A stretch of DNA of 64,000 nt, taken from IMG/VR virus record IMGVR_UViG_3300031784_000007, one strand, 5' to 3'. The translations under genes were made by a program, and so were the position numbers. How positions within the stretch are numbered: position 1 is the stretch's first letter; each line of letters opens with the position of its first letter. A model generated the notes under the pieces. That model did not search any database. It saw only the letters and a program-made list of their open reading frames with translations, and had not been told where the DNA came from. The DNA comes from a virus (Duplodnaviria > Heunggongvirae > Uroviricota > Caudoviricetes). Shown here piece by piece: positions 6,184-57,163 of this stretch.

Positions 6184-6203
6184 AATGATAAATACAAAGA
6201 ACT

Positions 6204-6446
6204 TTACAATTTTTTGTATTTATAATTTTTACTGATTTCAGTGGTGAAAAACTTACCTTGTGATTCTGATAATCTGAACTTAGCGTAAACTTTGTGTGGT
6301 ACATTTTCATATTCATACTTTGTACCGTTTTTAAATGTAACAACCATATTTTCGGTTGACATATCATACTGTGATTCTGTGATGTTGGATGATTCAATTA
6401 CATTATAAATCATCATACCTTTAATTTCTTCTCTTAAAATTGCCAT
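6204..6446 (-). CDS. KTSC-domain protein
   Basis: 80 aa; VTFKNGTKYEYENVPHKVYAKFRLSESQGKFFTTEI matches the KTSC pattern (G..Y.Y..VP..vy..f..a.S.G.yf...I). Confidence 0.5.
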   Translation of the reverse strand: MAILREEIKGMMIYNVIESSNITESQYDMSTENMVVTFKNGTKYEYENVPHKVYAKFRLSESQGKFFTTEISKNYKYKKL

Positions 6447-35949: not shown

Positions 35950-37596
35950 CCAGTTTTGAAATAAATCTTCAAGAACATGAATTGAAATTTTTCTTAATTT
36001 ACTATTAACCTCTGATACATCAAAATCTTTATCACCTAAAGATTTAATTGCTGCATTTACCATTATCCCCTGAACTTGTGGGTTTAACTCAATTAGACCC
36101 TCAAGAGCGGCTTCTGAGTATTCATCTAAGTCTTTCCATTTTGCTTGGTCAGTAATCCATTCTAAAGGTGCGTACAGAAATGGAGCGGCTTGGTACATGT
36201 TGACAATACCTGTTTTTCTTAAAAATTCCAAATATTGTTTTATTGTGTCCCAATCTTTTGGTTCTATGTTACTATAAGCATCGTCCCTTCTAAACATTGT
36301 TTCCAATTCACGTGACTCTTGAATTAATTTTGATTTTTTAGTTAAAGTCATTTCATGTAGAGCGTCTTCCTTTACGGTGGTTACAATTTCAGGATACGTC
36401 ATACCAATATGCTCATCATTTTTACCAGGGTAATCAGTATTATTTAAGATTACACGTAGAGCATTTAAAATACCCGCTCTTTTATCGTTAGTGTCAATAA
36501 TGTACCAAGGCGAAGCTGTTTTTGTTGCCAATATCGCTTTTTTCTTGTATTCAGTATAATCATCCCATTTTTCTAATGACTTGGCATCGTTTGGTGAAAA
36601 TTTCCAATACTTCAATGGTGATGACTTTCTAAGATTAAATCTTTTTTCTTGTGTTTCAGGTGTTATTGAAAACCAAAATTTAAATAATGGTATTCCCGCA
36701 CTAACTAAACTTCTTTCAAATGGATAAACATTTTCCATAAAGTCTTTATATTCATCTTCAGATGAATAACCCATAACAGGTTCAACAATACCTCTATTAT
36801 ACCAACTTCTATCAAAGAAAATTAATTTATTTGGTTCCATTTGACTTTCATATCTATTAAACCAATTTTTTCTTTCTTCAGGTGTTGGTACACCTAAAGC
36901 AACTACTTTAAAATATTTTGGGTCTAAGTATTGTGTTAAAGTTCTAATCATTGTACCTTTTCCTGCCGAATCACGACCTTCAAAAACAACAAGAAATGGT
37001 TTTCCTGAGTTTTTAACCATTTCTTGTAATTTTAATAATTCAACTTGCATTGGCATCAATTCTTTTATATATTGTTTTTTACCAATTTTAGATTTAATTG
37101 GTTCTTCCGAACCATACATAAATTCATCTTCGTCAAAATCATCATTTGGTTCTGATTCAATATCTTTTCTATCCTCTAAAGATTTAAGATATTTGTCAAT
37201 ATATTTTTTTACATTTTCAGTCTTATCACCTGACTTTAATAATTTTCGGTCAATATTCCTTAAAAATTCATCGGTAATATCATCATCATTTAACTTAGTA
37301 ATTTCATCTTCAAAATCGTCAGGATTTAAACCATCATCAACTAATACATTGACAAATTTTTCTATAGATTCACCTAATACATTTTCAGATTCAAAATCCC
37401 AAGCATCAGTTTCAGGTATTAAATCTAAAGTAGAATCATTATCCCATTTAACGCTGTATTGTATACCCAAACCGAATGGAACTCGTACTATTTTTGTGAC
37501 AGTACCTGTGGTACCAATAGGAACATTTGATGTTTCACCTTCCATGTAGTAACAAACTACTCTATCACCTTCTTTTAATTGCGGATTTAACGACAT
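35944..37596 (-). CDS. polyphosphate kinase 2 (PPK2) family protein with an N-terminal SH3/KOW-like domain
   Basis: LVVFEGRDSAGKGTMI (Walker A), FDRSWYNRG lid motif, ...YIIDTNDKRAG; N-terminal 180 aa unrelated. Confidence 0.7.
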   Translation of the reverse strand: MSLNPQLKEGDRVVCYYMEGETSNVPIGTTGTVTKIVRVPFGLGIQYSVKWDNDSTLDLIPETDAWDFESENVLGESIEKFVNVLVDDGLNPDDFEDEITKLNDDDITDEFLRNIDRKLLKSGDKTENVKKYIDKYLKSLEDRKDIESEPNDDFDEDEFMYGSEEPIKSKIGKKQYIKELMPMQVELLKLQEMVKNSGKPFLVVFEGRDSAGKGTMIRTLTQYLDPKYFKVVALGVPTPEERKNWFNRYESQMEPNKLIFFDRSWYNRGIVEPVMGYSSEDEYKDFMENVYPFERSLVSAGIPLFKFWFSITPETQEKRFNLRKSSPLKYWKFSPNDAKSLEKWDDYTEYKKKAILATKTASPWYIIDTNDKRAGILNALRVILNNTDYPGKNDEHIGMTYPEIVTTVKEDALHEMTLTKKSKLIQESRELETMFRRDDAYSNIEPKDWDTIKQYLEFLRKTGIVNMYQAAPFLYAPLEWITDQAKWKDLDEYSEAALEGLIELNPQVQGIMVNAAIKSLGDKDFDVSEVNSKLRKISIHVLEDLFQNWS

Positions 37597-44475: not shown

Positions 44476-44624
44476 TGATTAAAAAGATATTATCTTGGTT
44501 TAAGTTTAATAGATACATTAAGGTTGTTCATAAAGACCCAACAAGTTTTGAAATGGACCAATTGATGAAAAAAAATGAAAAACCAACCAAAATCGTAACT
44601 AAATTGAAATATACAAAAAATTAA
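44475..44624 (+). CDS. small basic protein (49 aa, not in ORF track)
   Basis: ATG overlaps the M23 stop (TAATG). Confidence 0.3.
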   Translation: MIKKILSWFKFNRYIKVVHKDPTSFEMDQLMKKNEKPTKIVTKLKYTKN

Positions 44625-44660
44625 TTTGACATTTTAAACAACTTATACTATATATAAAGT

Positions 44661-44990
44661 ATGAAATAGATTACAAACAGACTCTACGTAGTTACAAGAA
44701 AAGATTTGATGCCAGGTGCTCAAATCGCACAATCAGGACATGCAATTGCTCAATATCTGTTGGAGCATCCTGAAAAATCAAAAGAGTGGAACAATAACTA
44801 TCTTATTTGTTTATCCACCGAAAACGAACAATCATTAAACAAAGTATTAGAAAAGTTAGAATCGTTTGGAATTCCTATTTCCACATTCTACGAACCTGAT
44901 TTGAATAATCAGTTAACATCCATTGCGTTTCAACACAATGAAAAAAGTCATGGACATACAAAATCATTACCATTAGCACTTAAACAATAA
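44661..44990 (+). CDS. PTH2-family peptidyl-tRNA hydrolase; reading frame opens ATG-AAA-TAG (amber at codon 3), and the conserved N-terminal strand LYVVTRKDL lies between that TAG and the first downstream ATG (44709)
   Basis: Translation downstream of the TAG: ITNRLYVVTRKDLMPGAQIAQSGHAIAQ...IPISTFYEPDLNNQLTSIAF matches the PTH2 consensus (mvlvvRtDLkmgkGKiaAQcsHA ... DAG-like EPD ... T..a.GP). The ORF track starts it at TTG 44706, which would delete strand 1. Confidence 0.5.
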
Positions 44991-44994
44991 ACTT

Positions 44995-45252
44995 ATGAAA
45001 TAGATAACAGAAAAAAAAGAAGAAATTGTGTTTCATTTTAACAAGAAACACATTCAGAACTCAACAATCCCAATGTGGGTTGTGAAGTGTCGTGGTGATA
45101 CACATTACGTTGACCACGTTGATGTATTACCAGGAATTGGTTTTTCAACAAAAGAAACTCCCGACAATCCCCACACTAAAGGGAGTATAAAATTCAAAGG
45201 ACAATTGTCCATTAGTGAGGAAAACAATAAAATAACAGCAAAAATTTACTAA
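44995..45252 (+). CDS. hypothetical protein whose frame also opens ATG-AAA-TAG
   Basis: ATG 44995, AAA, TAG 45001-45003, then ATA ACA GAA ..., in frame with ORF-track 45028 (GTG). Confidence 0.35.
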
Positions 45253-45253
45253 A

Positions 45254-45595
45254 ATGAAAAACACAAAACACAACCCAACAATGATGATTAAATCGGCTTT
45301 CTCAAATAAAATCCATAAACTTTTAGGTGTATGTACCCATCACAAACCATATTCAAGAGAATACTGGGCATGTCTAAGTGAAAGAAAAAAATTAACTGAT
45401 GAAGATAAAGTTAAACTTTTTGATGAGGTTATGAAGATTTATAAGGAAACCTCAGATGAAATAAAAAACTACCGTAACGACAGAAACCTAAAGAAGTGGG
45501 TTAATAGAAGACGAGAAAACAGAGGGTATGTCCCAAAGAAAAAAACAACCAAAGAAGAATATCTGAATATGGTTGAAAATATGAAAGAAGTTTAA
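45254..45595 (+). CDS. hypothetical basic protein
   Basis: 113-aa ORF. Confidence 0.45.
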   Translation: MKNTKHNPTMMIKSAFSNKIHKLLGVCTHHKPYSREYWACLSERKKLTDEDKVKLFDEVMKIYKETSDEIKNYRNDRNLKKWVNRRRENRGYVPKKKTTKEEYLNMVENMKEV

Positions 45596-45704
45596 TAACT
45601 TTGTATTGTGATTGAAAAGTGACAGTGACGATTAGACCATGTGAGGCACACATAAAACGTATCAGTTGAAAGTTGAGGTGTTAGACCACCATTAATCACA
45701 TATA

Positions 45705-45776
45705 AGGTCGGGTGGCTGAGTACTTAGGTGAGGGTCCGCAAGACCCCTTAGGATAGTGGAAATCTATCTCCGACCT
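45705..45776 (+). pseudogene. tRNA-like element without a canonical anticodon arm or T-loop (perfect 7-bp acceptor aggtcgg/ccgacct; T-like arm gatag-TGGAAAT-ctatc)
   Basis: Manual fold; internal hairpin gggtc-cgcaa-gaccc has a 5-nt loop. Confidence 0.3.
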
Positions 45777-45782
45777 CTAATT

Positions 45783-45855
45783 GGCTCTGTGGTGTAGCGG
45801 TAACATTGCAGTCTCTAAAACTGATAGTCACGGGTTCGAACCCCGTCAGGGCCAC
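45783..45855 (+). tRNA. tRNA with anticodon CTA (amber suppressor, reads UAG), type I
   Basis: Manual cloverleaf: acceptor ggctctg/cagggcc (one GU), D gtgt-agcggta-acat, anticodon stem gcagt/actga with loop cTCTAaa (U33 and A37 present, 34-36 = CTA), variable tagtc, T arm acggg-TTCGAAC-cccgt, discriminator A. Confidence 0.6.
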
Positions 45856-45881
45856 AAAAAATAAAAAAAAAATAAAAAATA

Positions 45882-45912
45882 TTTGACATATCAATAAACT
45901 TTTGTATCTTTG
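45882..45912 (+). promoter_or_regulatory. promoter for the tRNA operon (-33 TTTG at 45882, -7 TAtcTTTG at 45905)
   Basis: Bacteroidetes-type spacing of about 20 nt between the two elements. Confidence 0.5.
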
Positions 45913-46117: not shown

Positions 46118-46190
46118 GGGACGGTAGCAAAGATGGTCAATGCACTGGACTGAAAATCCAGCCATGGTGGTTCGAGTCCACCCCGTCCCA
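46118..46190 (+). tRNA. tRNA-Phe (GAA)
   Basis: Acceptor gggacgg/ccgtccc, anticodon stem ctgga/tccag with loop cTGAAaa, T arm gtgg-TTCGAGT-ccac. Confidence 0.8.
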
Positions 46191-46198
46191 CAATACAT

Positions 46199-46272
46199 TG
46201 GTGATTAGCTCAGTTGGTTAGAGCACTACGCTGATACCGTAGGGGTCACAGGTTCAAGTCCTGTATCACCAA
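46199..46272 (+). tRNA. tRNA-Ile (GAT)
   Basis: Acceptor tggtgat/atcacca, D gctc/gagc, anticodon stem ctacg/cgtag with loop cTGATac, T arm acagg-TTCAAGT-cctgt. Confidence 0.8.
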
Positions 46273-46280
46273 CCATAAAT

Positions 46281-46351
46281 TACCCTTTCGTCTAATGGCA
46301 GGACAAGTGGTTTTGGTCCACTGAATGGAGGTTCGAGTCCTTCAGGGGTAA
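46281..46351 (+). tRNA. tRNA-Gln (TTG)
   Basis: Acceptor taccctt/aggggta, anticodon stem agtgg/ccact with loop tTTTGgt, T arm ggagg-TTCGAGT-ccttc. Confidence 0.7.
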
Positions 46352-46357
46352 CAATAT

Positions 46358-46432
46358 GACTTCGTAGCTCAATTGGTTTAGAGCACCTCACTTTTAATGA
46401 GGGGGTTTCGGGTTCGAGTCCCGACGGGGTCA
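46358..46432 (+). tRNA. tRNA-Lys (TTT)
   Basis: Acceptor gacttcg/cggggtc, anticodon stem cctca/tgagg with loop cTTTTaa, T arm tcggg-TTCGAGT-cccga. Confidence 0.8.
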
Positions 46433-46438
46433 CAACAT

Positions 46439-46511
46439 CTTTCCTTAGCTCAGTTGGAAGAGCATCTGCCTTACATGCAGAGGGTCGTTGGTTCAAATCC
46501 AACAGGAAAGA
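46439..46511 (+). tRNA. tRNA-Val (TAC)
   Basis: Acceptor ctttcct/aggaaag, anticodon stem tctgc/gcaga with loop cTTACat, T arm gttgg-TTCAAAT-ccaac. Confidence 0.8.
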
Positions 46512-46517
46512 CAAAAT

Positions 46518-46599
46518 GCCAGTATCGCATAGCGGCAATTGCACTTGACTGTAAATCAAGCCTCATTTGAGTTCGTAGGTTCGAGTCCTACTGCTGGCA
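46518..46599 (+). tRNA. tRNA-Tyr (GTA), type II
   Basis: Acceptor gccagta/tgctggc, anticodon stem cttga/tcaag with loop cTGTAaa, long variable arm cctcatttgagttc, T arm gtagg-TTCGAGT-cctac. Confidence 0.75.
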
Positions 46600-46661
46600 C
46601 AAAACTTATAATCCTCCAAAACTCGCTTTTTTTACTAGTTTTGGAGACTTATAGAATATAA

Positions 46662-46735
46662 GTCCATATGCCTGAATGGTAAAAGGGACAGTCTGCAAAA
46701 CTGTTATTCGTTGGTTCGATTCCAACTATGGACTC
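46662..46735 (+). tRNA. tRNA-Cys (GCA)
   Basis: Acceptor gtccata/tatggac, anticodon stem acagt/actgt with loop cTGCAaa, T arm gttgg-TTCGATT-ccaac. Confidence 0.75.
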
Positions 46736-46737
46736 TG

Positions 46738-46811
46738 TGACTGTAGCTCAGTTGGTTTAGAGCGTTGGTTTGTGGTACCAAAGGTCGTGGGTTCAAGCCC
46801 CATCAGTCACC
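46738..46811 (+). tRNA. tRNA-His (GTG), discriminator C, CCA encoded
   Basis: Acceptor gtgactg/cagtcac, anticodon stem ttggt/accaa with loop tTGTGgt, T arm gtggg-TTCAAGC-cccat; no encoded G-1. Confidence 0.75.
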
Positions 46812-46817
46812 CCAAAT

Positions 46818-46891
46818 GGTTCCTTAGCTCAATGGATTAGAGCGTTTCGCTACGGACGAAAAGGTTGGGGGTTCGAGTCCCTCAGGAATCA
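46818..46891 (+). tRNA. tRNA-Arg (ACG)
   Basis: Acceptor ggttcct/aggaatc, anticodon stem tttcg/cgaaa with loop cTACGga, T arm ggggg-TTCGAGT-ccctc. Confidence 0.8.
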
Positions 46892-46899
46892 CAACACAC

Positions 46900-46970
46900 A
46901 GGTCAGTAGTGAAATGGTATCATGACAGTCTCCAAAACTGTTGTTGGGGGTTCGAATCCCTCCTGGCCTG
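46900..46970 (+). tRNA. tRNA-Trp (CCA)
   Basis: Acceptor aggtcag/ctggcct, anticodon stem acagt/actgt with loop cTCCAaa, T arm ggggg-TTCGAAT-ccctc. Confidence 0.75.
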
Positions 46971-46976
46971 CAAAAT

Positions 46977-47058
46977 ACCAAAGTGGCGTAAAGGTAGCCG
47001 CGTTAGTCTTAGAAACTAATGTCCTCGGGACATGTGGGTTCGATTCCCACCTTTGGTA
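46977..47058 (+). tRNA. tRNA-Leu (TAG), type II
   Basis: Acceptor accaaag/ctttggt, anticodon stem ttagt/actaa with loop cTTAGaa, variable arm tgtcctcgggacatg, T arm gtggg-TTCGATT-cccac. Confidence 0.75.
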
Positions 47059-47063
47059 CATAT

Positions 47064-47135
47064 TCCTCGGTAGCTCAGCGGTAGAGCACTCGGCTGTTAA
47101 CCGAGCGGTCCCTGGTTCGAATCCAGGTCGGGGAG
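47064..47135 (+). tRNA. tRNA-Asn (GTT)
   Basis: Acceptor tcctcgg/tcgggga, anticodon stem ctcgg/ccgag with loop cTGTTaa, T arm cctgg-TTCGAAT-ccagg. Confidence 0.75.
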
Positions 47136-47178
47136 CAACTTTTTTTGGTAAAGTCAAATATCTGTTGTATATTTGTAT

Positions 47179-47656
47179 CATGACAACAGGATATATTTCT
47201 TCAACCGAATTTATCAAAGGTGCTAAAGAATCCGCATTGGCTAAAAGTGAGTCAGGTGATTGTGTTGTAAGAGCAATCGCATCTGCAGCTGAAATGGACT
47301 ATGATTCGGCTCATCAGTTTGTTAAACAAAAATTTAAAAGACAAAATCGTAAAGGAACTTTTGGTTTTGGTGTTACTATGAACCTAATGTCTAAAAATGG
47401 TGAAAAAATTAACGGTAAATCTGTTGAAATTATCTCTGAAGAATATAGTACCATGTTGTACTACGTTGTAGTGAAAGGGGTTAAAACCCTTAGAAGTACT
47501 ACAACGGGTTCTTTTATCAAAAAATATCCAAAAGGTACTTACGTGGTGGTTGTTAGAGGACATGCATTTACCATCAAAGATGGTGTGGTTATTGGTAACA
47601 TTGAAGATGGTAAAAAAATGAAAAAATACATTAATGGTGTTTGGAAAATTGGGTAA
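47179..47656 (+). CDS. hypothetical protein embedded in the tRNA island (possible Cys...His dyad GDCVVRAIA / RGHAFTIKDG)
   Basis: ORF-track 46922-47656 runs through five tRNAs; the real start is ATG 47179, preceded by tatatttgta. Confidence 0.45.
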
Positions 47657-47683
47657 TATGTTTTAACTTTGTATTATAATAAT

Positions 47684-47758
47684 GGTGTAGGTAGCTCAGT
47701 AGGTAGAGCAACGGTTTGAAACCCCGTGTGCCGAGTGGTTCGATTCCCTCTCACACCA
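47684..47758 (+). tRNA. tRNA-like, probable second tRNA-Phe (GAA), with imperfect acceptor and T-stem pairing
   Basis: D arm tagctcagtaggtagagca, anticodon loop tTGAAac, GGTTCGATTCC T-loop; acceptor ggtgtag/tcacacc has an A-C mismatch and the T-stem pairs poorly. Confidence 0.4.
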
Positions 47759-47974
47759 CAAAATAATTAGATGGGCGTAATGAGGGATGGTACCCGAGTC
47801 CCCAAGATTGGCGGTCACCTGTAATTGGTGGTCGTTGCGTCGTAAGGTTGTCTAATCCGTCCTGAACGGTATCCGGTTCGAGACCGGCTCTAATTATGAA
47901 AAACTAACCCAGTTTCACAATGAAGGCTGATACCTTCGGAGTGGGGGTGACGGTCAGGAGAGACTGACAACCAT

Positions 47975-48079
47975 AGTCAGGTGGCGGAATAGTAGACGCA
48001 ACGAAAGTAAAGTAAGATGGCCCAAACCTTTAAGGTGCGAATAAGCTACTTTGTGCAGGTTCAAATCCTGTCCTGACTA
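47975..48079 (+). tRNA. tRNA-like chimera E1: agtcagg acceptor plus Leu-type D arm, a 56-nt non-tRNA core, then acagg-TTCAAAT-cctgt and cctgact acceptor
   Basis: Core contains a 6-bp helix aaagta/tacttt and no 7-nt anticodon loop. Confidence 0.4.
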
Positions 48080-48122
48080 CAGAGAGTTTTATCAACGGTT
48101 CTCACTAAAAAACCAAAGAAAT

Positions 48123-48200
48123 AGTCAGGTGGCGGAATGGTTAGACGCGACCACGTGAGTGGTCAAACCGGTGTTACAGGTTCGAATCCTGTCCTGACTA
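48123..48200 (+). tRNA. tRNA-like chimera E2: same acceptor/T-arm scaffold; the anticodon arm is replaced by a GNRA-capped hairpin gaccac-GTGA-gtggtc
   Basis: 6-bp perfect stem with a 4-nt GTGA loop; no anticodon possible. Confidence 0.45.
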
Positions 48201-48274
48201 CCAAGTAGAGAGAACCGTGAGTTTGCGGATGGAAACAACCATAAAACGAGCATACGTCATACTCTACTTAAAAT

Positions 48275-48366
48275 AGTCAGGTTTGGTACAAGGTCGGTTG
48301 GATTCCGATGGAAGGTTGTGGCAACGGGTAGCTCCCTGTAGAGAGGTTCGATTCCTCTCCTGACTA
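48275..48366 (+). tRNA. tRNA-like chimera E3: same acceptor scaffold; the interior carries the T-arm-like hairpin tcgg-TTGGATT-ccga and other stems
   Basis: agtcagg ... agagg-TTCGATT-cctct cctgact. Confidence 0.4.
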
Positions 48367-48478
48367 CCGAAGATATCTGTCTAAAAGGACAGGGTTAGCA
48401 ATTTGGAAAAGTACGGAGCGGATAATATCCCTTCTGAGCGAAATCCTTAGGTTGTAGAGGCTGTGGAGCGACACCATA

Positions 48479-48486
48479 TATCTTTG
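48479..48486 (+). promoter_or_regulatory. -7 promoter box TAtcTTTG, 8 nt before tRNA E4
   Basis: TAnnTTTG. Confidence 0.4.
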
Positions 48487-48493
48487 CAAATTT

Positions 48494-48566
48494 AGTCAGG
48501 TGGCGCAATGGTGAGCGCAGGATGCTTATATCATCAAGGTTATGGGTTCGAATCCCGTCCTGACTA
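48494..48566 (+). tRNA. tRNA-Ile (TAT) candidate; canonical type I member of the agtcagg family
   Basis: D gcgc-aatggtga-gcgc, anticodon stem ggatg/catca (top pair mismatched) with loop cTTATat, T arm atggg-TTCGAAT-cccgt. Confidence 0.55.
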
Positions 48567-48581
48567 CTAATAACAGGAAAT

Positions 48582-49190
48582 ATGAAATATACACTAAATT
48601 GTTACGGATGGCAAATGGAAGCAATCGGAAAATCATTAACCGATGAGCAAGTTTCAAAAATTAAAGAGTTTATGAGCGAAAATGGGTATGAAAATTTGTG
48701 GGAAGCCCGTTTTGAATTGGACCAACTTTTAGACATTGACATTTGGGATGGTGAACTGTTTCATTTATCAAAAGCGTTTGATAACGGAGGAATGAATTTT
48801 GTTATTGAGGATGAAGAAGGGAAAGAGGTGTTAAAATTTGATATTCAAGATATGTTGGCTTTGGATGAGGTGATTGATGATTATTACACACATAATCGTC
48901 TTGAAGAGTATAACGCATTTCCAAATGAAAATGGTAACAATAACGTTCTGTTGATGGTTGATGAGAATAAAGGTGGGTTGTATTACATGAACTTTGAGTC
49001 AGATGATGTTCCAACAGTAGAAGATTTTACATTTATGACAGGTAGTATTGTAACACCTGAAGGCGATTATGATTATATTGATAAAATTTTCTTTAAAACT
49101 GTTGAGTTAGAAATTGAGGATTATTTGGATAATTCGGGGAAAGCATCAACCGTTGAATTGTTTACATCTGATGGAGGGGTAATAAACTAA
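48582..49190 (+). CDS. hypothetical acidic protein within the tRNA island
   Basis: 202-aa ORF. Confidence 0.5.
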   Translation: MKYTLNCYGWQMEAIGKSLTDEQVSKIKEFMSENGYENLWEARFELDQLLDIDIWDGELFHLSKAFDNGGMNFVIEDEEGKEVLKFDIQDMLALDEVIDDYYTHNRLEEYNAFPNENGNNNVLLMVDENKGGLYYMNFESDDVPTVEDFTFMTGSIVTPEGDYDYIDKIFFKTVELEIEDYLDNSGKASTVELFTSDGGVIN

Positions 49191-49200
49191 TTATAGTTTT

Positions 49201-49274
49201 GGCGAGGTAGCTCAATTGGTTAGAGCGTCTGTTTCATACGCAGAAGGTTAACGGTTCGATTCCGTTCCTCGCTA
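49201..49274 (+). tRNA. tRNA-Met or Ile2 (CAT), elongator type
   Basis: Acceptor ggcgagg/cctcgct, anticodon stem tctgt/gcaga with loop tTCATac, T arm aacgg-TTCGATT-ccgtt. Confidence 0.75.
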
Positions 49275-49315
49275 CAAAGTTGATTATTCAAAACAAGTTA
49301 TTTATATTTTAACAG

Positions 49316-50584
49316 ATGGAAAAATTATCAAGAGTAGGGAACCAAATCGTCGGTTCTGAGATTATCAAAATCTCACAACAAATCAAAGAAATTGCAAAAA
49401 CAAAACCTGTATCAAACTTAACCATTGGTGACTTTAGTTCCAAATTATGGCCAATACCAACAAAATTAAGTGATTACATTCAAGAAGCTTATGAACATGG
49501 TTTAACAAATTATCCAAATTCACAAGGTGAAATTGAGTTAAGGGAATCTGTTTCAAAACATATTAAACATCAATTCAATGTTGATTATTCACCTGAAGAA
49601 ATCTTAATTGGTGGTGGTGTTAGACCTTTGATTTATACAGTTTATAAATCAATGGTAAATCCGGGTGAGGGTGTTATTTATCCAACACCATCTTGGAATA
49701 ACAACCATTATTGTTTTTTACATAACGCTGAAAAACAAGAAATTGAATGTTCACCTGAAAATTCATTTTTTCCAACCGTTGAAGATGTTAAAAATAAATT
49801 GAGGGACAATACATCTTTAATTTGTATTTGTTCACCACAAAATCCAACAGGTCGTGTAATTAATTCAGAAGTTTTGAAAGGTATTTGTCAGGTAATTGTT
49901 GATGAAAACAATATCAGAAAAAATCAAGCATATACAAGACCATTGTATTTGTTCTTTGACCAAATTTATTCTGACATTACCAAAGATGGTTTATTTGTAC
50001 ACCCATTAACACTGTGTCCTGAAATTAAAGATTATTTGATTTGTGCTGACGGTATTTCAAAATCATTAAACGCAACTGGTGTTCGTGTTGGTTGGTTGTT
50101 TGGACCAAAAGATGTGATTGGGAAAATGACTGAGGTCTTGTCTCATATCGGAGCTTGGGCACCAAAACCTGAACAAACAGCATTGGCCAGATACATCAAA
50201 GAAAATCATGATGATTATTTGTCACACATTGATTATGTTACAAAAGAGTATGAATATTTATCAACCCAAATATGTGAAAAGTTTCAAGAGTTGAAGACAA
50301 AGGGTTTAGATGTTGATTATCAAAAACCTGATGGTGGAATTTATATTTCAGTTTATTTGGGTTATGTCCATTCATTTTCATCTACAGAAGAATATATTTC
50401 GTTCTTAATTAATACTTGTGGATTGGGAATTGTTCCTTTTGAATATTTTGGTTCCAAAGAAAATAAAGGATGGTTTAGAATCTCAATTGGTAACATTTCA
50501 TCATTAAATTTGGATTTTATTCTTGATACAATTGAAAAATCCGTATTAAAATCAAATAGTTTTATAAATTCTATGGTATTTTGA
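49316..50584 (+). CDS. PLP-dependent aminotransferase, class I/II fold
   Basis: ICADGISKSLNATGVRVGWLFGP (SxSK...GxRxGW lysine motif); 422 aa. Confidence 0.6.
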   Translation: MEKLSRVGNQIVGSEIIKISQQIKEIAKTKPVSNLTIGDFSSKLWPIPTKLSDYIQEAYEHGLTNYPNSQGEIELRESVSKHIKHQFNVDYSPEEILIGGGVRPLIYTVYKSMVNPGEGVIYPTPSWNNNHYCFLHNAEKQEIECSPENSFFPTVEDVKNKLRDNTSLICICSPQNPTGRVINSEVLKGICQVIVDENNIRKNQAYTRPLYLFFDQIYSDITKDGLFVHPLTLCPEIKDYLICADGISKSLNATGVRVGWLFGPKDVIGKMTEVLSHIGAWAPKPEQTALARYIKENHDDYLSHIDYVTKEYEYLSTQICEKFQELKTKGLDVDYQKPDGGIYISVYLGYVHSFSSTEEYISFLINTCGLGIVPFEYFGSKENKGWFRISIGNISSLNLDFILDTIEKSVLKSNSFINSMVF

Positions 50585-50730
50585 TTGATTTTTTCAAAAT
50601 ATTACTATATTTAATAAGAAATCAAATAATAATACATTCGATGAAAACCATATTCATATTCGGCACACCAGCAACAGAGGGTGATACTTCCAAAGTGGAG
50701 ATGGGATAATATTGTAAAAAATCTTACAAA

Positions 50731-50760
50731 AACCCATCTCAAAAGGATGGGTTTTTTTTT
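50731..50760 (+). terminator. intrinsic terminator (CCCATC / GATGGG plus 9 T residues)
   Basis: Follows the aminotransferase gene. Confidence 0.7.
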
Positions 50761-50791
50761 GGTTATGTTTGTCAATATCAAAAAAATGTAT

Positions 50792-50799
50792 TAACTTTG
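50792..50799 (+). promoter_or_regulatory. -7 promoter box TAacTTTG
   Basis: Precedes the second copy of the 27-nt element and tRNA-Glu. Confidence 0.4.
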
Positions 50800-50837
50800 T
50801 ATTGTTGTTGAAGATGACAACAGAACAAAAAAGTTCT

Positions 50838-50864
50838 TTGACATGTTGGTAATAAAAAAATTGC
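50838..50864 (+). repeat. second copy of the 27-nt element aagttctttgacatgttggtaataaaaaa
   Basis: Matches 46088-46114. Confidence 0.5.
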
Positions 50865-50931
50865 TCGGTTCGTCTATCGGTTAGGACCTCAGGTTTTCAT
50901 CCTGGTAAGAGGGGTTCGACTCCCCTACCGA
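50862..50931 (+). tRNA. tRNA-Glu (TTC)
   Basis: Acceptor gctcggt/accgagt, anticodon stem tcagg/cctgg with loop tTTTCat, T arm agggg-TTCGACT-cccct. Confidence 0.7.
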
Positions 50932-51036
50932 GTACAAAAGTTATATCCTCAGGTACCCGTACAGTGGTGAGTAGGGTTAAATTAGATACAAGTTCTCGGA
51001 ACTGGAAGTAGAATGCCTGTACGATGTAACTTAAAT

Positions 51037-51111
51037 GCCTCCGTAGCTCAGTTGGCCAGAGCTACTGATTTGTAATCAGTGGGTCGGCGGTTCGAATCCG
51101 TCCGGAGGCTC
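51037..51111 (+). tRNA. tRNA-Thr (TGT), CCA encoded
   Basis: Acceptor gcctccg/cggaggc, anticodon stem actga/tcagt with loop tTTGTaa, T arm ggcgg-TTCGAAT-ccgtc. Confidence 0.8.
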
Positions 51112-51120
51112 CAAATAAAT

Positions 51121-51276
51121 AGTCAGGTGGCGAAATGCTTATAAGCAGACATATAGTCCCCTTATAACTTGGAAGACGCTTAGTCCTATGATGGTGTATG
51201 GTTGAAAGAGCTTACCTAGGACGAATGCCGTAACTGCAGTAATCCGGCGCTACAGGTTCGAGCCCTGTCCTGACTA
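51121..51276 (+). tRNA. tRNA-like chimera E5 (156 nt): agtcagg acceptor and acagg-TTCGAGC-cctgt cctgact ends around a structured insert of about 110 nt
   Basis: Insert hairpins include gctta/taagc and gtccta/taggac. Confidence 0.4.
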
Positions 51277-51305
51277 CAAACATTCAAGAGTAATTAACTT
51301 GAATA

Positions 51306-51371
51306 GGCTAATTAGTGGAGTGGTACCACAGAGGTGATTCTCAGACGCAGGTTCGATTCCTGTATTATCCA
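51306..51371 (+). pseudogene. truncated tRNA-like element (acceptor, D and T arms present; only 17 nt between D and T arms)
   Basis: ggctaat ... gtgg-agtggta-ccac ... gcagg-TTCGATT-cctgt attatcc. Confidence 0.3.
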
Positions 51372-51372
51372 C

Positions 51373-51590
51373 AAACCTCAGGATTAATTACCCTGAGACT
51401 GGAAGGTTCGAAACTTCCGATTGGTTATGGTGTATGGGGCACGGCAGAACGTAATTGGGATGCAGGATTAAGGTTCAAATCCTTATTAATCAGCAAATGG
51501 AGGTATGGGGTGAACCCCTGACACAAAGTACAAGTGATGGTACGTACGACCTATAGGTTACCAACCTCTAAACTAATTACAACTTTTTTA
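51373..51590 (+). pseudogene. block of degenerate tRNA-like fragments and small hairpins (T-loop-like GGTTCGAAACTTCC and AAGGTTCAAATCCTT; no complete cloverleaf)
   Basis: Manual inspection only. Confidence 0.25.
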
Positions 51591-51593
51591 AAT

Positions 51594-51665
51594 AGCGGGG
51601 TAGAGCAGAGGTAGCTTGCAAGGCTCATAACCTTGAGGTCACAGGTTCGAATCCTGTCCCCGCTA
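51594..51665 (+). tRNA. tRNA-Met or Ile2 (CAT), A1-U72
   Basis: Acceptor agcgggg/ccccgct, anticodon stem caagg/ccttg with loop cTCATaa, T arm acagg-TTCGAAT-cctgt. Confidence 0.7.
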
Positions 51666-51671
51666 CCAAAT

Positions 51672-51749
51672 TGTGATACAGGTGTAACGTCGGTCTCATG
51701 AACCGAATTGGGTCGCCCCCCGTCAGAGGTTCGAGTCCTCTAATCACAA
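51672..51749 (+). pseudogene. aberrant tRNA-like (CAT anticodon loop cTCATga, no proper D arm, 18-nt variable region)
   Basis: tgtgata ... tcggt-ctcatga-accga ... agagg-TTCGAGT-cctct aatcaca. Confidence 0.3.
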
Positions 51750-51756
51750 CCAAATA

Positions 51757-51840
51757 TATGGCGAGTTGGTGTAATGGTAACATATTGGGCTCATAACCCA
51801 AAGTTCTAGGTTCGAGTCCTAGGTTCGCAACCAAGTACCA
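51757..51840 (+). pseudogene. aberrant tRNA-like with CAT anticodon arm (ttggg-cTCATaa-cccaa) and a tandemly duplicated T-arm segment ctaggttcgagtcctaggttcgcaacc
   Basis: The 3' acceptor strand does not pair with any candidate 5' strand. Confidence 0.25.
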
Positions 51841-52040
51841 CGATGATTACCGTAAGAACATCACAGTGGTAGATAGAGTTAACGTGAATAACCCAAGGCA
51901 TAAGCGTTAACAACCCCCCATAAGAATATTTGGCCAATAGAAACTGTGGGGGTTTTTAAAATCTTGTGTCTTGGTACGCTCTGACGAAAGTTAACGACAA
52001 GGTCTCGGTGGACAGAACTAGTCTGATTCCACCCAAAAAT

Positions 52041-52112
52041 GCGAGTGTCGTATAAAGGCTATTACTCCAGCCTTCCAAGCTGGAGATGGGAGTTCGATTC
52101 TCCCCACTCGCT
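52041..52112 (+). tRNA. tRNA-Gly (TCC)
   Basis: Acceptor gcgagtg/cactcgc, anticodon stem ccagc/gctgg with loop cTTCCaa, T arm gggag-TTCGATT-ctccc. Confidence 0.75.
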
Positions 52113-52321
52113 CAAAAAGAACCTTTCCTTACGGAAGTCCGATTAGCGCGGATGAAAGGAACCTTGACTTTGTGGGAGTAATTACCCAACCGAAGTTTGA
52201 ATGACTCAAGGTACTCTGTAATGGACCCTGCTCTATGGTGCACACATAACAGGTGATGGGGAACAAACCATCGGTAAAATCTAAACCTACGGTGAGCGTA
52301 GAAGGAAAGTTTCTTTTTGTT

Positions 52322-52394
52322 GCGGGAGTAGCTCAGTTGGTAGAGCACAACCTTGCCAAGGTTGGGGTCGCCGGTTCGAATCCGGTCTCCCGCT
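52322..52394 (+). tRNA. tRNA-Gly (GCC)
   Basis: Acceptor gcgggag/ctcccgc, anticodon stem caacc/ggttg with loop tTGCCaa, T arm gccgg-TTCGAAT-ccggt. Confidence 0.8.
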
Positions 52395-52463
52395 CAAATG
52401 TGAATCTTAAAAAGGGCCCTTCCGTGTTTATTACGGCTTGTTGGGCCCGGATTTACTAACTAC

Positions 52464-52535
52464 GGTCCTGTAGTTAATCGGCTATAATATTGCCCTGTCA
52501 CGGCAAAGTGCCGGGTTCGATTCCCGGTGGGACCG
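52464..52535 (+). tRNA. tRNA-Asp (GTC)
   Basis: Acceptor ggtcctg/tgggacc (two GU pairs), anticodon stem ttgcc/ggcaa with loop cTGTCac, T arm ccggg-TTCGATT-cccgg. Confidence 0.7.
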
Positions 52536-52544
52536 CAAAAATAA

Positions 52545-52618
52545 GGGCTGTTAGCTCAGTTGGCTAGAGCACCTGCCTTGCACGCAGGGGGTCGACGGTT
52601 CGAATCCGTCACGGTCCA
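52545..52618 (+). tRNA. tRNA-Ala (TGC) with the G3-U70 identity pair
   Basis: Acceptor gggctgt/acggtcc, anticodon stem cctgc/gcagg with loop cTTGCac, T arm gacgg-TTCGAAT-ccgtc. Confidence 0.8.
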
Positions 52619-52627
52619 CAAAAAAAT

Positions 52628-52703
52628 AGCGTAGTAGAGGAGTCAGGTTTATCTCATCTGCTTTGGGAGCAGAGGCACGCTGGTTCGAATCCAGTCTACG
52701 CTA
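52628..52703 (+). tRNA. tRNA-Pro (TGG)
   Basis: Acceptor agcgtag/ctacgct, anticodon stem tctgc/gcaga with loop tTTGGga, T arm gctgg-TTCGAAT-ccagt; D loop unusually long. Confidence 0.65.
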
Positions 52704-52738
52704 CAATTATTTTTTATTATCAACGTGTATTTATAGTT

Positions 52739-54373
52739 ATGGTATTATTAGAAGGTAGAAAAGAAGACATTTATAACAAATACAAAGGACAGATTGATGC
52801 CGATAGGAAATTAGATTCATCTTTTGAACCATTATCAATTTATGACATATTGATTGGGGAGCCGTTTTTACAACAAACAAACTACAAATATTTAGAACCT
52901 TTAGTACAACAATATTTTTTCAACAACGAAGTTTATCCAAGACAAGGTAAAGAGTTGGAAGAACTTGAACCAAATCACCCTAACACAGCAATTGAGTCTA
53001 TACGTAGCAAAAGACAATTTGTTCAGAATGTTGTATCAAAAGTTGAATTCTTTGATAAGAATAAAGACAAATACCCTAAAAAAGATTTAAGGGAATATAT
53101 TGGAGATTGGTTTGAAAGAGATTTTTTGGATTTTACAGATGATTTAATTAAAAAATCTTCAATTAAACAAGAGGAAAAGAAAGCTAGAAAAGAAGTTGAG
53201 AAAATCTACGATAGTGATACGGTTTTAATAGTGAAACCAAAAACACATACGGCATCTTGTTATTATGGTGCAGGTACCAAATGGTGTACGACAATGAAGG
53301 ATAACACATCCTATTTTGATAATTACACAAAAAATGCAAATCTTTATTATATAATTGTTAAAAAGAAAAAAGTATCTGATAGATTTTATAAAATAGCCCT
53401 TAGTATCAGACCAGGTCAGAAATTAATTGATGCCGAGTGGTATGATGTTTTGGATAATATGTTAGGTTATAGTGAAAAAGATTTATTCCTAACAATTATC
53501 CCACAAAAAGCTATTGATTCAATTTATGAAGATTTAAAACAGTTAAAAGATTCTTGGTTTACTAAAGAATTGGTTCCAACAATTCCAAAAACAGCTTTAA
53601 TGCAGGCAGGTTCTAGATTTTTTTTAAGTGGTACTAAATCAGTAAATATTGCGTTAAGATTTGAACAATTTGAATTACATGATGATTTGGGTGATGTTGA
53701 AGAGGATGGTGAATTTCAAAGATTTACCGCAAAATATAGACTTTCAGAATTCAATCAAACTGAAATGGAATTAGTTGACCCTGATGAGGATTCTCATTTT
53801 TATGAAGACGGTTCAGTTTATGGTGTAGTATTGGCAGGTGAAAACACATATCAAATTATTTTAAATTTTGAACAAGATGATGATTATGGTAATGATTATC
53901 TTTTAAATTACGGAGAACAATTACAAACTGATGGTAATTTTAATAAAGATAAGTCTTTTTCGGTGACAATGCACAAAATGTTAGATAAAACATTAGATAA
54001 AATTACAAGTTATGATTATTTCAAAGCTAAATTAAGGGAATTTAGTGAGAAAAAAGGTATTAATAGAAAATACACATTAGCTGGTTATACCTTTACTAAA
54101 GGTGGTAAATTAACAAGAGCGTTGATTAATTATATTGATTCATTACCTGAAGGTGTTGTTGGTAATAAATTAGATTTCTTAAAAAGAACAGGTCAAGTTA
54201 CTGTTACACCCCAAGGAAGTTTTAGTAAAACAGGAAGACAAATATCACTTCAAGGATATCTATCATCTTTCTTTTCAGCGGCAAACCAAGCCGGAATTAT
54301 TCAAAAACCTAAGGGTAAAAATGGATACATTAAAGGTCCAAATTTTGACAAATACAAGGAAAAATTCTCTTAA
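52739..54373 (+). CDS. hypothetical protein with the SCxYGAxTKWC...YFDNYT domain (paralogue of 10037-12187)
   Basis: LIVKPKTHTASCYYGAGTKWCTTMKDNTSYFDNYTKNANLYYII. Confidence 0.6.
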   Translation: MVLLEGRKEDIYNKYKGQIDADRKLDSSFEPLSIYDILIGEPFLQQTNYKYLEPLVQQYFFNNEVYPRQGKELEELEPNHPNTAIESIRSKRQFVQNVVSKVEFFDKNKDKYPKKDLREYIGDWFERDFLDFTDDLIKKSSIKQEEKKARKEVEKIYDSDTVLIVKPKTHTASCYYGAGTKWCTTMKDNTSYFDNYTKNANLYYIIVKKKKVSDRFYKIALSIRPGQKLIDAEWYDVLDNMLGYSEKDLFLTIIPQKAIDSIYEDLKQLKDSWFTKELVPTIPKTALMQAGSRFFLSGTKSVNIALRFEQFELHDDLGDVEEDGEFQRFTAKYRLSEFNQTEMELVDPDEDSHFYEDGSVYGVVLAGENTYQIILNFEQDDDYGNDYLLNYGEQLQTDGNFNKDKSFSVTMHKMLDKTLDKITSYDYFKAKLREFSEKKGINRKYTLAGYTFTKGGKLTRALINYIDSLPEGVVGNKLDFLKRTGQVTVTPQGSFSKTGRQISLQGYLSSFFSAANQAGIIQKPKGKNGYIKGPNFDKYKEKFS

Positions 54374-55264: not shown

Positions 55265-57163
55265 ATGCAAATGAAAAAAATTCTTTTATCATTAACGCTG
55301 GTTTGCGCTTCGCTGGTGAGTTACGCGCAAACATGTCCGACACCGTCCACGACGGCTGCTCACGTGACATTAGATTCAACTTACCAAACAGGTACCTATA
55401 GGTCTGGAAAAACAAACATAGGATTGTGTTGGTACAACAACACCTCAACAAACATTACGGCAACACAGTTTAGAGTATTCTACGATAAAACTGCGTTTGC
55501 TAAGGTTGATACTGTTACTTCGTTGAATACGTCGTTCTCACAGTATCTTCAGTATGTGGACAACCCAACAGGTGGATATGTAACAATTACTTTAACTTAC
55601 ACAGGTAATAATAGTAGTTTTACATTACCGAATGGTAAAATGTTCCAAGTTACTTTGAAACATTCATCAGTACTTGCAACAACATACTTTACCCCTACCG
55701 ATATGACATTTGGTGGAACCCCAACTTTTCCTCAGTTATCTACAACTCAGGCAGGTGCCGACTATGCGTTGACACTTAAAAACTTTGGTGGTGTTTTCAA
55801 ACCTCAGGTTATGTCATTTAAGGGTAAGTTTGTAAACGTTACTGGTACACCTTCAAAAAACTTGACAGTATCATTAGAGAAGAAACTTAAAACTTCTTCA
55901 ACATGGTCATATGTTCAAGATACCTTTACTAATAGTTTAGGTAAATTCTTCTTCACAGATGTTGCAATTGATACAACTGTTTGGGATGTAAGAATTGCAG
56001 TTAAAGGTGATACTATGGGTGTTGGAGCAATTGTTTCTACATCAGATGCACAAAGAATCAACCAATATGTATTGGGAACTCAGTCTATGACTGGTTTTGA
56101 TTACTATTCATCTGACGTAAACGGAGACAATTCAGTTTCAATCTCTGACGTTTATGGTGTTTACGCAAGAGTATCAGGTAGATTTACAACTTGGTCAAAT
56201 AGTGTTAAAGATGTTAAATTCTTTACAGTTTCTGAATACGACACTATTAACGGTTCGAGTAAAAACTACACAAGTACAATTGCGGGTGTAACAAACTTCA
56301 CATACCAAATCATCGCAGGTCAACCTGACTCTGTAACTTATTATGTTGTGTGTCCTGGTGATGCTAACGGAACAGGTTACAACAGAGCTCGTTTAACACC
56401 AATTCAAATTGTTAATCCAAACAATGCTAACAAACACATCATTGATGTAACTACAGCATATGATAACATTTTGGAAACTATTGAAGTTAACTACCCTAAA
56501 TTGGGTGTAGATGCTGGTGACGTGGTTAGAATTCCTGTAAAATTAAAAACAGGTGGTATTAACTTAGGTTCATTACAGATTTGTATGAAATACGATTCTA
56601 CTCTTTTAACTTTTAAAGGTGTAAAAAATGAAATGAAAACTTCTTATTGGATTTCTTTCATCAATACATCAAACAACATGGTTGAATGGGGTGGATATGA
56701 CCCATCTAATAACCAACACTTGGTTAACGATGGTGATTTGTTTTTTACATTAGAATTTGAATCTAAAAAACCACAGAACGAGTGGGGAAAAAGTCCATTG
56801 TATGTTCAAAGAAAATTTGCAGGTAACCCATTGGCAACTGATTTAAACATCACACCAACTGACGGAATCATTCAAGTTTTCAGAATGGGTGGTACAACAA
56901 ACAATTTCAAAGATATGATTTTATATCCTAACCCATTTGAGGGTGATGTAACAATTGGTTTTAAAATCTACAAAGAAGGTAAAAACATAATTGGTATTTA
57001 TGATATAAACGGAAAACAACAAATGGAAATTGTTGCAAACGAAACTAAAATTGGAATTTATTCAAACACAGTTGATTTGAGTTTTTTACCTCCAGGAACT
57101 TACTTGGCGGTTTTAAGAAACGAAGAAAAAACAACAACAAAAAAAGCAGTTAAAACTAAATAA
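55265..57163 (+). CDS. secreted protein with T9SS type-A C-terminal sorting domain (Por secretion CTD)
   Basis: Signal peptide; dockerin-like DVNGDNSVSISDVYGVY; C-terminus LYPNPFEGDVTIGF...IYDINGKQ...LPPGTYLAVL matches the type-A CTD. Confidence 0.75.
   Translation: MQMKKILLSLTLVCASLVSYAQTCPTPSTTAAHVTLDSTYQTGTYRSGKTNIGLCWYNNTSTNITATQFRVFYDKTAFAKVDTVTSLNTSFSQYLQYVDNPTGGYVTITLTYTGNNSSFTLPNGKMFQVTLKHSSVLATTYFTPTDMTFGGTPTFPQLSTTQAGADYALTLKNFGGVFKPQVMSFKGKFVNVTGTPSKNLTVSLEKKLKTSSTWSYVQDTFTNSLGKFFFTDVAIDTTVWDVRIAVKGDTMGVGAIVSTSDAQRINQYVLGTQSMTGFDYYSSDVNGDNSVSISDVYGVYARVSGRFTTWSNSVKDVKFFTVSEYDTINGSSKNYTSTIAGVTNFTYQIIAGQPDSVTYYVVCPGDANGTGYNRARLTPIQIVNPNNANKHIIDVTTAYDNILETIEVNYPKLGVDAGDVVRIPVKLKTGGINLGSLQICMKYDSTLLTFKGVKNEMKTSYWISFINTSNNMVEWGGYDPSNNQHLVNDGDLFFTLEFESKKPQNEWGKSPLYVQRKFAGNPLATDLNITPTDGIIQVFRMGGTTNNFKDMILYPNPFEGDVTIGFKIYKEGKNIIGIYDINGKQQMEIVANETKIGIYSNTVDLSFLPPGTYLAVLRNEEKTTTKKAVKTK

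Follow-up and report, generated by a model that had tools for sequence, protein, structure and literature searches.

The 64,000-nucleotide (nt) stretch of phage DNA analysed here (hereafter the window; IMG/VR record IMGVR_UViG_3300031784_000007) encodes a tRNA with a CUA anticodon at positions 45783-45855. This tRNA closes a 1.2-kilobase (kb) cassette whose first two genes, a predicted homologue of PTH2-type peptidyl-tRNA hydrolase (ORF1) and a small all-beta protein (ORF2), each carry an in-frame TAG at codon 3. Our preferred reading, to which we give a probability of roughly three in four, is that the tRNA would decode the early UAG of these neighbouring genes and so act as a dedicated key for them. 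The support at the level of sequence comes from the tRNA itself, the in-frame TAGs, the need of the predicted fold for residues that follow the stop, selection on these residues at the protein level, the conserved linkage of gene and tRNA, and one switch from TAG/CUA to TAA/UUA; from these we infer both read-through in vivo and the purpose of such a gate. The cassette comprises the following features, listed in their order along the DNA:

44645-45873, + strand: indel cassette of 1.2 kb with three open reading frames (ORFs), a tRNA-Cys-like gene and the suppressor tRNA
44626-44660, + strand: promoter-like sequence at the left cassette end (TTGACA at 44626-44631, 17 nt, TATATA at 44649-44654)
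44661-44990, + strand: ORF1, predicted PTH2-type peptidyl-tRNA hydrolase homologue, 109 codons, in-frame TAG at codon 3 (44667-44669)
44995-45252, + strand: ORF2, 85-codon all-beta protein, in-frame TAG at codon 3 (45001-45003)
45254-45595, + strand: ORF3, basic protein of 113 amino acids (aa), ordinary ATG start
45706-45777, + strand: divergent tRNA-Cys-like gene (GCA anticodon, U73, C33, T-loop TGGAAAT), 5 nt upstream of the suppressor
45783-45855, + strand: tRNA with anticodon CUA (amber suppressor), from ARAGORN, Rfam and a family alignment

The CUA tRNA and its neighbouring genes

A preliminary description of this DNA, made from its letters alone, had folded the tRNA by hand with a CUA anticodon, U33 and A37. 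This fold is correct: ARAGORN places a 73-nt tRNA with the same anticodon and structure at exactly 45783-45855 (+), where it comes second in a series of about 33 tRNA genes, and the Rfam tRNA model (RF00005) scores it at 60.9 bits against a gathering score of 29. The acceptor stem has 7 base pairs (bp; G1-C72, one U.G pair), the D stem 4 bp and the anticodon stem 4-5 pairs, with a G.A mismatch at position 27:43. The D-loop contains G18G19, the anticodon loop reads CUCUAAA (including U33 and A37), the variable loop is 5 nt long, the T-loop carries TTCGA and the discriminator base is A73. It is a canonical class-I elongator tRNA. ARAGORN labels it tRNA-Pyl, a label that reflects the anticodon only: tRNA-Pyl has a 6-bp anticodon stem, a 3-nt variable loop, a small D-loop without G18G19 and no T-psi-C motif, whereas the GG-containing D-loop, 5-nt variable loop, TTCGA and 4-5-pair anticodon stem found here speak otherwise.

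The tRNA sequence is identical in 10 strain contigs, which is uninformative because these contigs are 99.5-100% identical to the window, and an exact-match search of IMG/VR with the tRNA found nothing. The suppressor tRNAs of homologous loci (described below) are diverse, with 55 distinct sequences. An 18-sequence alignment of the family shows compensatory double changes in 17 of 20 base pairs, with neither the UCUAAA loop nor G1-C72 varying. No parent sense tRNA was identified among 529 sense tRNAs, the nearest ones being of mixed isotype and at most 76% identical. Isotype assignment by similarity to this set is not decisive, with Trp weakly nearest (0.69-0.74 identity for the subfamily of the window); G1-C72 and A73 do not fit the E. 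coli identity rules for either Gln or Trp.

ORF1 begins with ATG AAA TAG ATT ACA AAC AGA CTC TAC GTA GTT; standard ORF finding starts the gene at TTG 44706, in frame with the upstream TAG. When read through the TAG, the product matches Pfam PTH2 (PF01981) at 28.5 bits (cutoff 23) over residues 8-78, and the profile of its family matches archaeal Pth2 in the PDB (2zv3) over the full length with an E value of 2.6e-8 and human Bit1 with an E value of 2.5e-4. The AlphaFold model has a predicted local distance difference test score (pLDDT) of 92, and all 15 significant Foldseek matches to it are Pth2 structures, with template modelling (TM) scores of 0.62-0.81 (0.78-0.81 for 2zv3 and 1q7s; 0.78 for 2zv3). 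These four lines of evidence agree in predicting that ORF1 is a PTH2-type peptidyl-tRNA hydrolase homologue, and its family retains the AQ..HA motif and one conserved Thr. In the model, residues 4-10 (numbering begins with the codon that follows the TAG) form strand beta1, RLYVVTR. Because this strand sits between the TAG and the first standard start, initiation at the TTG (residue 13 or 14) would delete it; the modelled fold needs the residues directly after the TAG.

Translation of these residues is also suggested by diverged copies of the cassette, which share 78-89% aa identity, stand in different genomic contexts and have the leader M-(K/R)-TAG. (L numbers here and below designate individual loci or contigs of our collection.) Over the 13 codons after the TAG, the window differs from L104 by 7 synonymous and 1 non-synonymous changes, and from L107 by 4 synonymous and 0 non-synonymous changes. 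Divergence here is almost wholly synonymous, indicating that the stretch is translated in the ORF1 frame.

ORF2 has a similar start (ATG AAA TAG ATA ACA GAA), and standard ORF finding begins it at GTG 45028, again in frame with the upstream TAG. The same M-x-TAG start is found directly 3' of a PTH2-like gene at 17 homologous loci, and a homologue search with ORF2 found 786. The ORF2 model (pLDDT 82) has no fold match in the PDB. In L203 and L204, ORF2 has an ordinary ATG start while the hydrolase gene still has its TAG, suggesting that the hydrolase-tRNA pair is the core of the module. Homologues of ORF3 lie directly 3' of a PTH2-like gene or of ORF2 at 23 loci; a Pfam search with ORF3 gives a weak match only (T4_Rnl1_C, E value 0.016), and a PHROG search gave no match for either ORF2 or ORF3. 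With in-frame UAG clients that would need read-through to give complete proteins, 1.1 kb (ORF1) and 0.8 kb (ORF2) upstream of a tRNA with the CUA anticodon, the identity of the latter as an amber suppressor, put forward in the preliminary description, is supported.

The tRNA-Cys-like gene that precedes the suppressor is called by ARAGORN and falls below the Rfam threshold. It adjoins the suppressor in L104, L107, L111, L120 and L121 as well, with compensatory stem changes, and in L128 it has the canonical T-loop TTCGAAT.

The cassette as a whole is mobile. Relatives were collected via a 544-aa protein encoded downstream of the tRNA island (52739-54373): the 80 loci fetched in this way contain about 370 tRNAs and zero suppressors. 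Alignments of the syntenic L007, L028 and L037 (84-97% nt identity) to the window end at 44644 and resume at 45859-45874; since these loci align on both sides and not across, a stretch of 1.2 kb at 44645-45873 has been inserted or deleted. The two junctions (44616-44660 and 45856-45910) carry A-rich repeats that resemble each other and look like TTGACA promoters, which suggests that the cassette is gained or lost by recombination between promoter copies, resembling the promoter stem-loop shuffling of T4-like phages. The repeat at the right junction also fits TTTG-N19-TAnnTTTG, which we take to be a Bacteroidota promoter pattern. We infer that the promoter-like sequence at the left end would start a transcript at or near the ATG at 44661, although a consensus scan did not list it.

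Early stops and suppressor tRNAs across phages

A search of IMG/VR with an alignment of PTH2-like proteins produced 80 loci with 37-89% identity, on contigs of up to 430 kb with a guanine-cytosine (GC) content of 21-66%. Early stops were scored by walking upstream in frame from the conserved strand, and a suppressor was counted if on the same strand and within 4 kb. An ATG followed by 1-5 sense codons and then TAG is present in 65 of the 80 loci, and 54 of these 65 have a tRNA(CUA) that counts as a suppressor by this rule. Dereplication at 90% identity reduced the 80 loci to 56 clusters, which divide as follows:

37 clusters: early TAG and suppressor
9 clusters: early TAG, no suppressor within 4 kb
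1 cluster: early TAA and tRNA(UUA)
6 clusters: neither early stop nor suppressor
3 clusters: suppressor without a recognisable early stop

Early stop and suppressor are associated across the 56 clusters (Fisher's exact test, p = 0.008). The early stop is TAG in 46 of the 47 dereplicated clusters that have one, and the base following the early stop is most often A (36 clusters), then G (9) and C (2), and never T; a purine after UAG favours amber suppression. None of 52 loci out of 52 has an ATG, GTG or TTG between the early stop and strand beta1, so canonical re-initiation cannot yield an intact domain. The single TAA case, L179, reads ATG-ACT-TAA, and the tRNA(UUA) next to it shares 80% identity with the tRNA(CUA) of L167, a relative: judging from these sequences, codon and anticodon were switched together in this lineage, from TAG/CUA to TAA/UUA.

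The hydrolase family also occurs in published genomes: 207 from cluster C mycobacteriophages, 15 from Lak phages and several from phages of 460-735 kb. Two phages of the 462-735-kb class show the same arrangement as the window: LR756500 reads MK-TAG-INNHKL with one CUA tRNA within 4 kb, and LR756501 reads MS-TAG-IYKL with two. In the mycobacteriophages, Bxz1 gp154 reads ATG TAG GTG with a CUA tRNA 300 nt downstream (annotated as 'tRNA-OTHER'), and Myrna gp84 reads GTG TAG GTG with a CUA tRNA 130 nt downstream (annotated as 'tRNA-Ser').

Other arrangements around the hydrolase gene were noted at individual loci. UUA tRNAs stand next to PTH2-like genes in L201 (LR745208; 4411-4487), L202 (Lak-B4; 3344-3416) and L203 (3176-3248), where the PTH2-like gene has no early stop or an additional CUA tRNA lies beside it; the linkage of hydrolase and suppressor may extend beyond the early-stop gate. 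L205 encodes a release-factor-like protein of 186 aa with PCRF/RF-1 domains (2160-2720), 2 kb from the hydrolase-tRNA pair. In L188 (about 2993-4000), the hydrolase ORF appears to be interrupted after the first strand by a homing-endonuclease-like ORF.

Genetic code of the genome and competing explanations

The preliminary description had compared the tRNA with those of crAss-like and Lak phages, in which TAG is recoded, and had proposed partial or temporally regulated recoding. We surveyed the code over about 81 kb (the window and both flanks) of a genome exceeding 120 kb, the longer contigs of this phage, among them Ga0315902_10000138 (120 kb) and ERZ4235757 NODE_8 (109 kb), being 108-120 kb. 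A greedy gene set under the standard code (code 11) covers 88% of the window, with TAA ending 62 genes, TGA 18 and TAG 6; three of the six TAG stops belong to spurious ORFs over RNA genes. Code-11 coverage is 95% in the left flank, where TAA ends 11 of 11 genes, and 89% in the right flank. The genes for terminase, portal, prohead protease, major capsid protein and a GH19 endolysin are intact in code 11 and have no in-frame TAG, the structural genes having TAA as their stop. Treating TAG as a sense codon lengthens ORFs by almost nothing, the smallest gain of the three stop codons (below TGA and TAA), and the window contains no TAG-split genes. Between strains, there are no sense-to-TAG variants in 92,090 codons compared (in contigs 99.5-100% identical to the window).

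Ordinary termination at TAG is seen as well. Three ordinary genes of the window end in TAG, where read-through would append 9, 25 and 18 residues, and the gene at 14320-14958 (-) does end in TAG as had been observed. A scan of the window for an ATG, at most 5 codons, a stop and then an ORF of at least 60 codons found no credible case beyond ORF1 and ORF2. Counts of TAG-interrupted long ORFs in other loci were discarded, being confounded by spurious ORFs over tRNA arrays. As far as these 81 kb show, the phage genome outside the cassette uses the standard code. Given intact code-11 genes and no TAG-split genes, the crAss/Lak model of recoded late genes is not applicable to this part of the genome; and because the only credible in-frame TAGs are those at codon 3 of two cassette genes, the recoding is gene-specific and self-contained. 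The earlier proposal is partly supported: the tRNA is of a genuine suppressor type in a phage with Bacteroidota signatures, in-frame TAG codons exist, and TAG still ends ordinary genes. Its comparison with phages that recode structural or lysis genes is not supported, the recoding being neither a partial one across the genome nor a late-gene switch.

Several observations weigh against the tRNA being a dedicated key for its neighbours. Nine clusters have an early TAG with no suppressor within 4 kb and three have the reverse, and covariation of TAA with UUA is known from one lineage. In the ORF1 family, the GK(G)K segment of Pth2 is replaced by PGx and the DAG motif by an invariant EPD, so that hydrolase activity is a prediction. 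In Bxz1 and Myrna, a Shine-Dalgarno sequence lies 7 nt before the post-TAG GTG; this well-spaced signal makes ordinary initiation plausible, and these two cases are therefore ambiguous. Homologues do not reveal which amino acid would be inserted at TAG: the Q in 'MKQITN...' homologues is the code-15 translation of TAG and no independent evidence, TAG-free homologues have N-termini that are too variable, and those of ORF2 cannot be aligned there. The code survey, finally, covers part of the genome. The Xanthomonas jumbo phage XacN1, which has two CUA tRNAs for which its authors could not find targets (PMC5852040), was considered as a carrier of the module and rejected, a further point of this kind: its ORF295 is a canonical PTH2 with a normal ATG, and no early-TAG gene is near the suppressors. 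ORF088, which adjoins them, is unrelated, and the unannotated 2.5 kb beside them has no coding signal under TAG read-through.

The alternative that we take most seriously, while considering it unlikely, is that ATG-AAA-TAG is a real two-codon mini-ORF, like the bar minigenes of lambda, which regulates downstream initiation; the hydrolase would then be made by non-canonical re-initiation and the tRNA would have its role elsewhere, for example as a buffer against nonsense mutations or by disturbing termination in the host. In E. coli there is a functional link between minigenes and Pth, the early stop is frequently followed by ATT, ATA or CTG (weak near-cognate starts), and the GTG right after the TAG in Bxz1 and Myrna has good Shine-Dalgarno spacing. 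However, about one third of the codons after the stop are not start-like (GTA, GTT, ACA, ACT, AGA, AAA), and no canonical start precedes beta1 in any of the 52 loci. A mini-ORF also does not account for the predominance of TAG among the 47 early stops, as TAA would do equally well, or for a cognate tRNA encoded alongside in most loci and, in one lineage, switched jointly with the codon.

Under classical code 15 recoding of the crAss/Lak type, TAG would encode an amino acid in numerous genes, chiefly those for late structural and lysis proteins located beyond the 81 kb, and the tRNA would serve this recoding. The genome does extend past the part examined, and its low GC content (33%), rare TAG stops (about 3 of 80 genes) and suppressor tRNA match the precursor state of Borges et al. 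(bioRxiv 10.1101/2021.08.26.457843). We find this improbable in view of the intact structural and endolysin genes with their TAA stops, the code-11 coverage of 88-95% with little ORF gain and no TAG-split gene, the lack of sense-to-TAG variants, close relatives that do without the tRNA, and real genes that end in TAG. A third possibility, that the tRNA arose by mutation of a sense tRNA and rides in a mobile cassette as a neutral or decaying passenger without function, is more improbable still: its absence from close relatives would fit, as would the lack of a parent sense tRNA above 76% identity, but a decaying gene is difficult to reconcile with a canonical cloverleaf of 60.9 bits, with compensatory stem changes around an invariant anticodon loop across diverged cassettes, and with a linkage to early-TAG genes that is kept in phages of 21-66% GC.

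If the tRNA is indeed a dedicated key, a ribosome starting at the ATG would meet UAG after two codons, where either release factor 1 would end translation at almost no cost or tRNA(CUA) would insert an amino acid and allow the full protein to be made. How much hydrolase is made, and in this cassette also how much ORF2 product, would depend on the balance between release factor 1 and suppressor that has been expressed, processed and charged. The position of the stop fits a gate better than drift, because an attempt that fails within the first six codons costs next to nothing. As the purpose of the gate, we favour coupling: a suppressor may send ribosomes past stops, leading to stalled or dropped-off peptidyl-tRNA, and the capacity for hydrolysis would rise and fall with suppressor activity. 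Another option is that the hydrolase acts back on the suppressor pool as a homeostat (negative feedback), or that the stop simply times synthesis to when the tRNA island is expressed. The phage encodes a transfer-messenger RNA of its own (tmRNA; see below), which fits this theme of translation rescue.

Phage context, related systems and implications

The source is a T4-like freshwater phage with a GC content of 33% in the window. INPHARED contains no phage close to the window at the DNA level; the same phage, at 99.5-100% nt identity, is present in well over 100 metagenome assemblies, many of them from the Joint Genome Institute (JGI). The left flank, which adjoins the window, encodes a T4-type terminase, portal, gp21-type protease, gp23-type capsid protein and a phage ribosomal protein S21, and the right flank the GH19/PG_binding endolysin. 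The host is probably a member of the Bacteroidota. Two large proteins of the window end in type IX secretion sorting domains, bearing out the Bacteroidetes signature noted previously: one is CHU_C, on a protein with PKD repeats, and the other is Por_Secre_tail. Both domains are Bacteroidota markers, and these phage proteins are possibly secreted by the host. Other features of the window are:

12343-12735, + strand: tmRNA (Rfam full length, 53.6 bits against a threshold of 47; not reported by ARAGORN)
23224-27759, + strand: CHU_C-type protein with PKD repeats, type IX secretion sorting domain at its end
35944-37596, - strand: polyphosphate kinase 2 gene
48123-48203, + strand: odd tRNA-like gene (2-nt 'anticodon' in ARAGORN; Rfam 42.6 bits)
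49316-50584, + strand: class I/II aminotransferase gene in the middle of the tRNA island
51306-51371, + strand: 66-nt tRNA-like element (Rfam only, 46.5 bits)
52217-52279, + strand: Rfam 'freshwater-1' RNA motif (full length, 73.8 bits against 72)
55265-57163, + strand: Por_Secre_tail protein, type IX secretion sorting domain at its end

ARAGORN reports 32 of the tRNA genes of the window. The tRNA island (46118-52704) is variable among strains that are otherwise more than 99% identical: L014 is without the Gln, Lys, His, Arg and Trp tRNA genes, and L011 without those for Phe and Gly(UCC). L007, a 7-kb contig with 91-97% nt identity to the window, has four tRNA genes only according to ARAGORN. 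The freshwater-1 motif lies between tRNA-Gly(UCC) and tRNA-Gly(GCC), which gives this orphan motif from metagenomes a location within a phage tRNA array. The tmRNA is near a ClpB-like AAA+ gene (7092-9176). Further translation-related cargo includes the S21 gene, next to the capsid module (L018, 16036-16230, in the left flank of the window), and the gene of a KTSC-domain protein (6155-6397, -), which is among the few with a TAG stop.

The arrangement has partial parallels in known systems. The gene for release factor 2, prfB, is autoregulated via an early in-frame UGA and +1 frameshifting and senses its own product. It is likewise a translation-factor gene with an early in-frame stop, where competition at that codon sets the output; here, the escape would be via a co-encoded suppressor tRNA, with feedback onto the hydrolase being hypothetical. 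In the pyrrolysine system, the pylT tRNA(CUA) is clustered with methyltransferase genes carrying in-frame UAG, so that a dedicated tRNA(CUA) also stands beside a few UAG-containing clients while UAG otherwise terminates. The tRNA of the window, in contrast, has a normal cloverleaf, no pylS or pylBCD was seen, and the UAG is located in a variable N-terminal leader instead of at a catalytic residue.

Among phages, the code 15 crAss-like and Lak phages and the 'code change module' of Jade (Borges et al., bioRxiv 10.1101/2021.08.26.457843; Peters et al., PMC9523058) resemble the window in that a phage tRNA(CUA) reads UAG in a standard-code host, and also in low GC, few TAG stops and stop-codon reading as a proposed expression gate. 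In these recoded phages, numerous genes contain scattered TAG codons, most of all those for structure and lysis, and are broken up under code 11; here TAG is confined to the first few codons of two small cassette genes, leaving structural and lysis genes untouched. Borges et al. (bioRxiv 10.1101/2021.08.26.457843) found suppressor tRNAs both in phages that are recoded and in certain relatives that keep the standard code, and proposed a path from low GC through stop-codon depletion and tRNA acquisition to late-gene recoding. XacN1 (PMC5852040) and Klebsiella phage phiKp24 (PMC8386662) likewise have suppressors in a large tRNA island, an otherwise standard code and unnamed targets; in our case, the candidate targets lie where neighbouring genes begin (5' end) rather than beyond annotated stops, and XacN1 is without the module. 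The PTH2 proteins of jumbo phages (PMC7824862), Bxz1 gp154 and Myrna gp84 belong to the same protein family and are encoded in or beside tRNA islands. Iyer et al. (2021; PMC7824862) proposed a role in ribosome and tRNA recycling for jumbo-phage PTH2, in a text from which the word 'suppressor' is absent, and GenBank annotation of the cluster C mycobacteriophages begins the gene after the TAG, with neither the early stop nor the tRNA linkage noted. We found no description of a PTH2/suppressor early-stop module in the literature searched, which left out most subscription journals; judging by the loci compared here, we appear to be dealing with a variant not yet described, a self-contained amber gate on specific genes that turns up again in other phage lineages.

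Suppressor tRNAs recur in large phages with a standard code, and published targets for them have been lacking (PMC5852040, PMC8386662); the first codons of the adjacent hydrolase gene are concrete, conserved candidates. The PTH2-like gene itself is misread at present: standard gene callers truncate it, and code-15 callers silently put Q at the TAG. We regard the chances as about even that a suppressor tRNA and a PTH2-like gene with the cognate stop in its first six codons form a widespread, previously unrecognised phage module, a self-contained gate or feedback loop, which would explain many orphan suppressor tRNAs in large standard-code phages and may seed genome-wide TAG recoding. If so, annotation would be corrected in hundreds of genomes, a tRNA and a translation-recycling enzyme would make up a natural gene-specific amber gate, and this gate would be a plausible intermediate between the standard code and recoded phage genomes.
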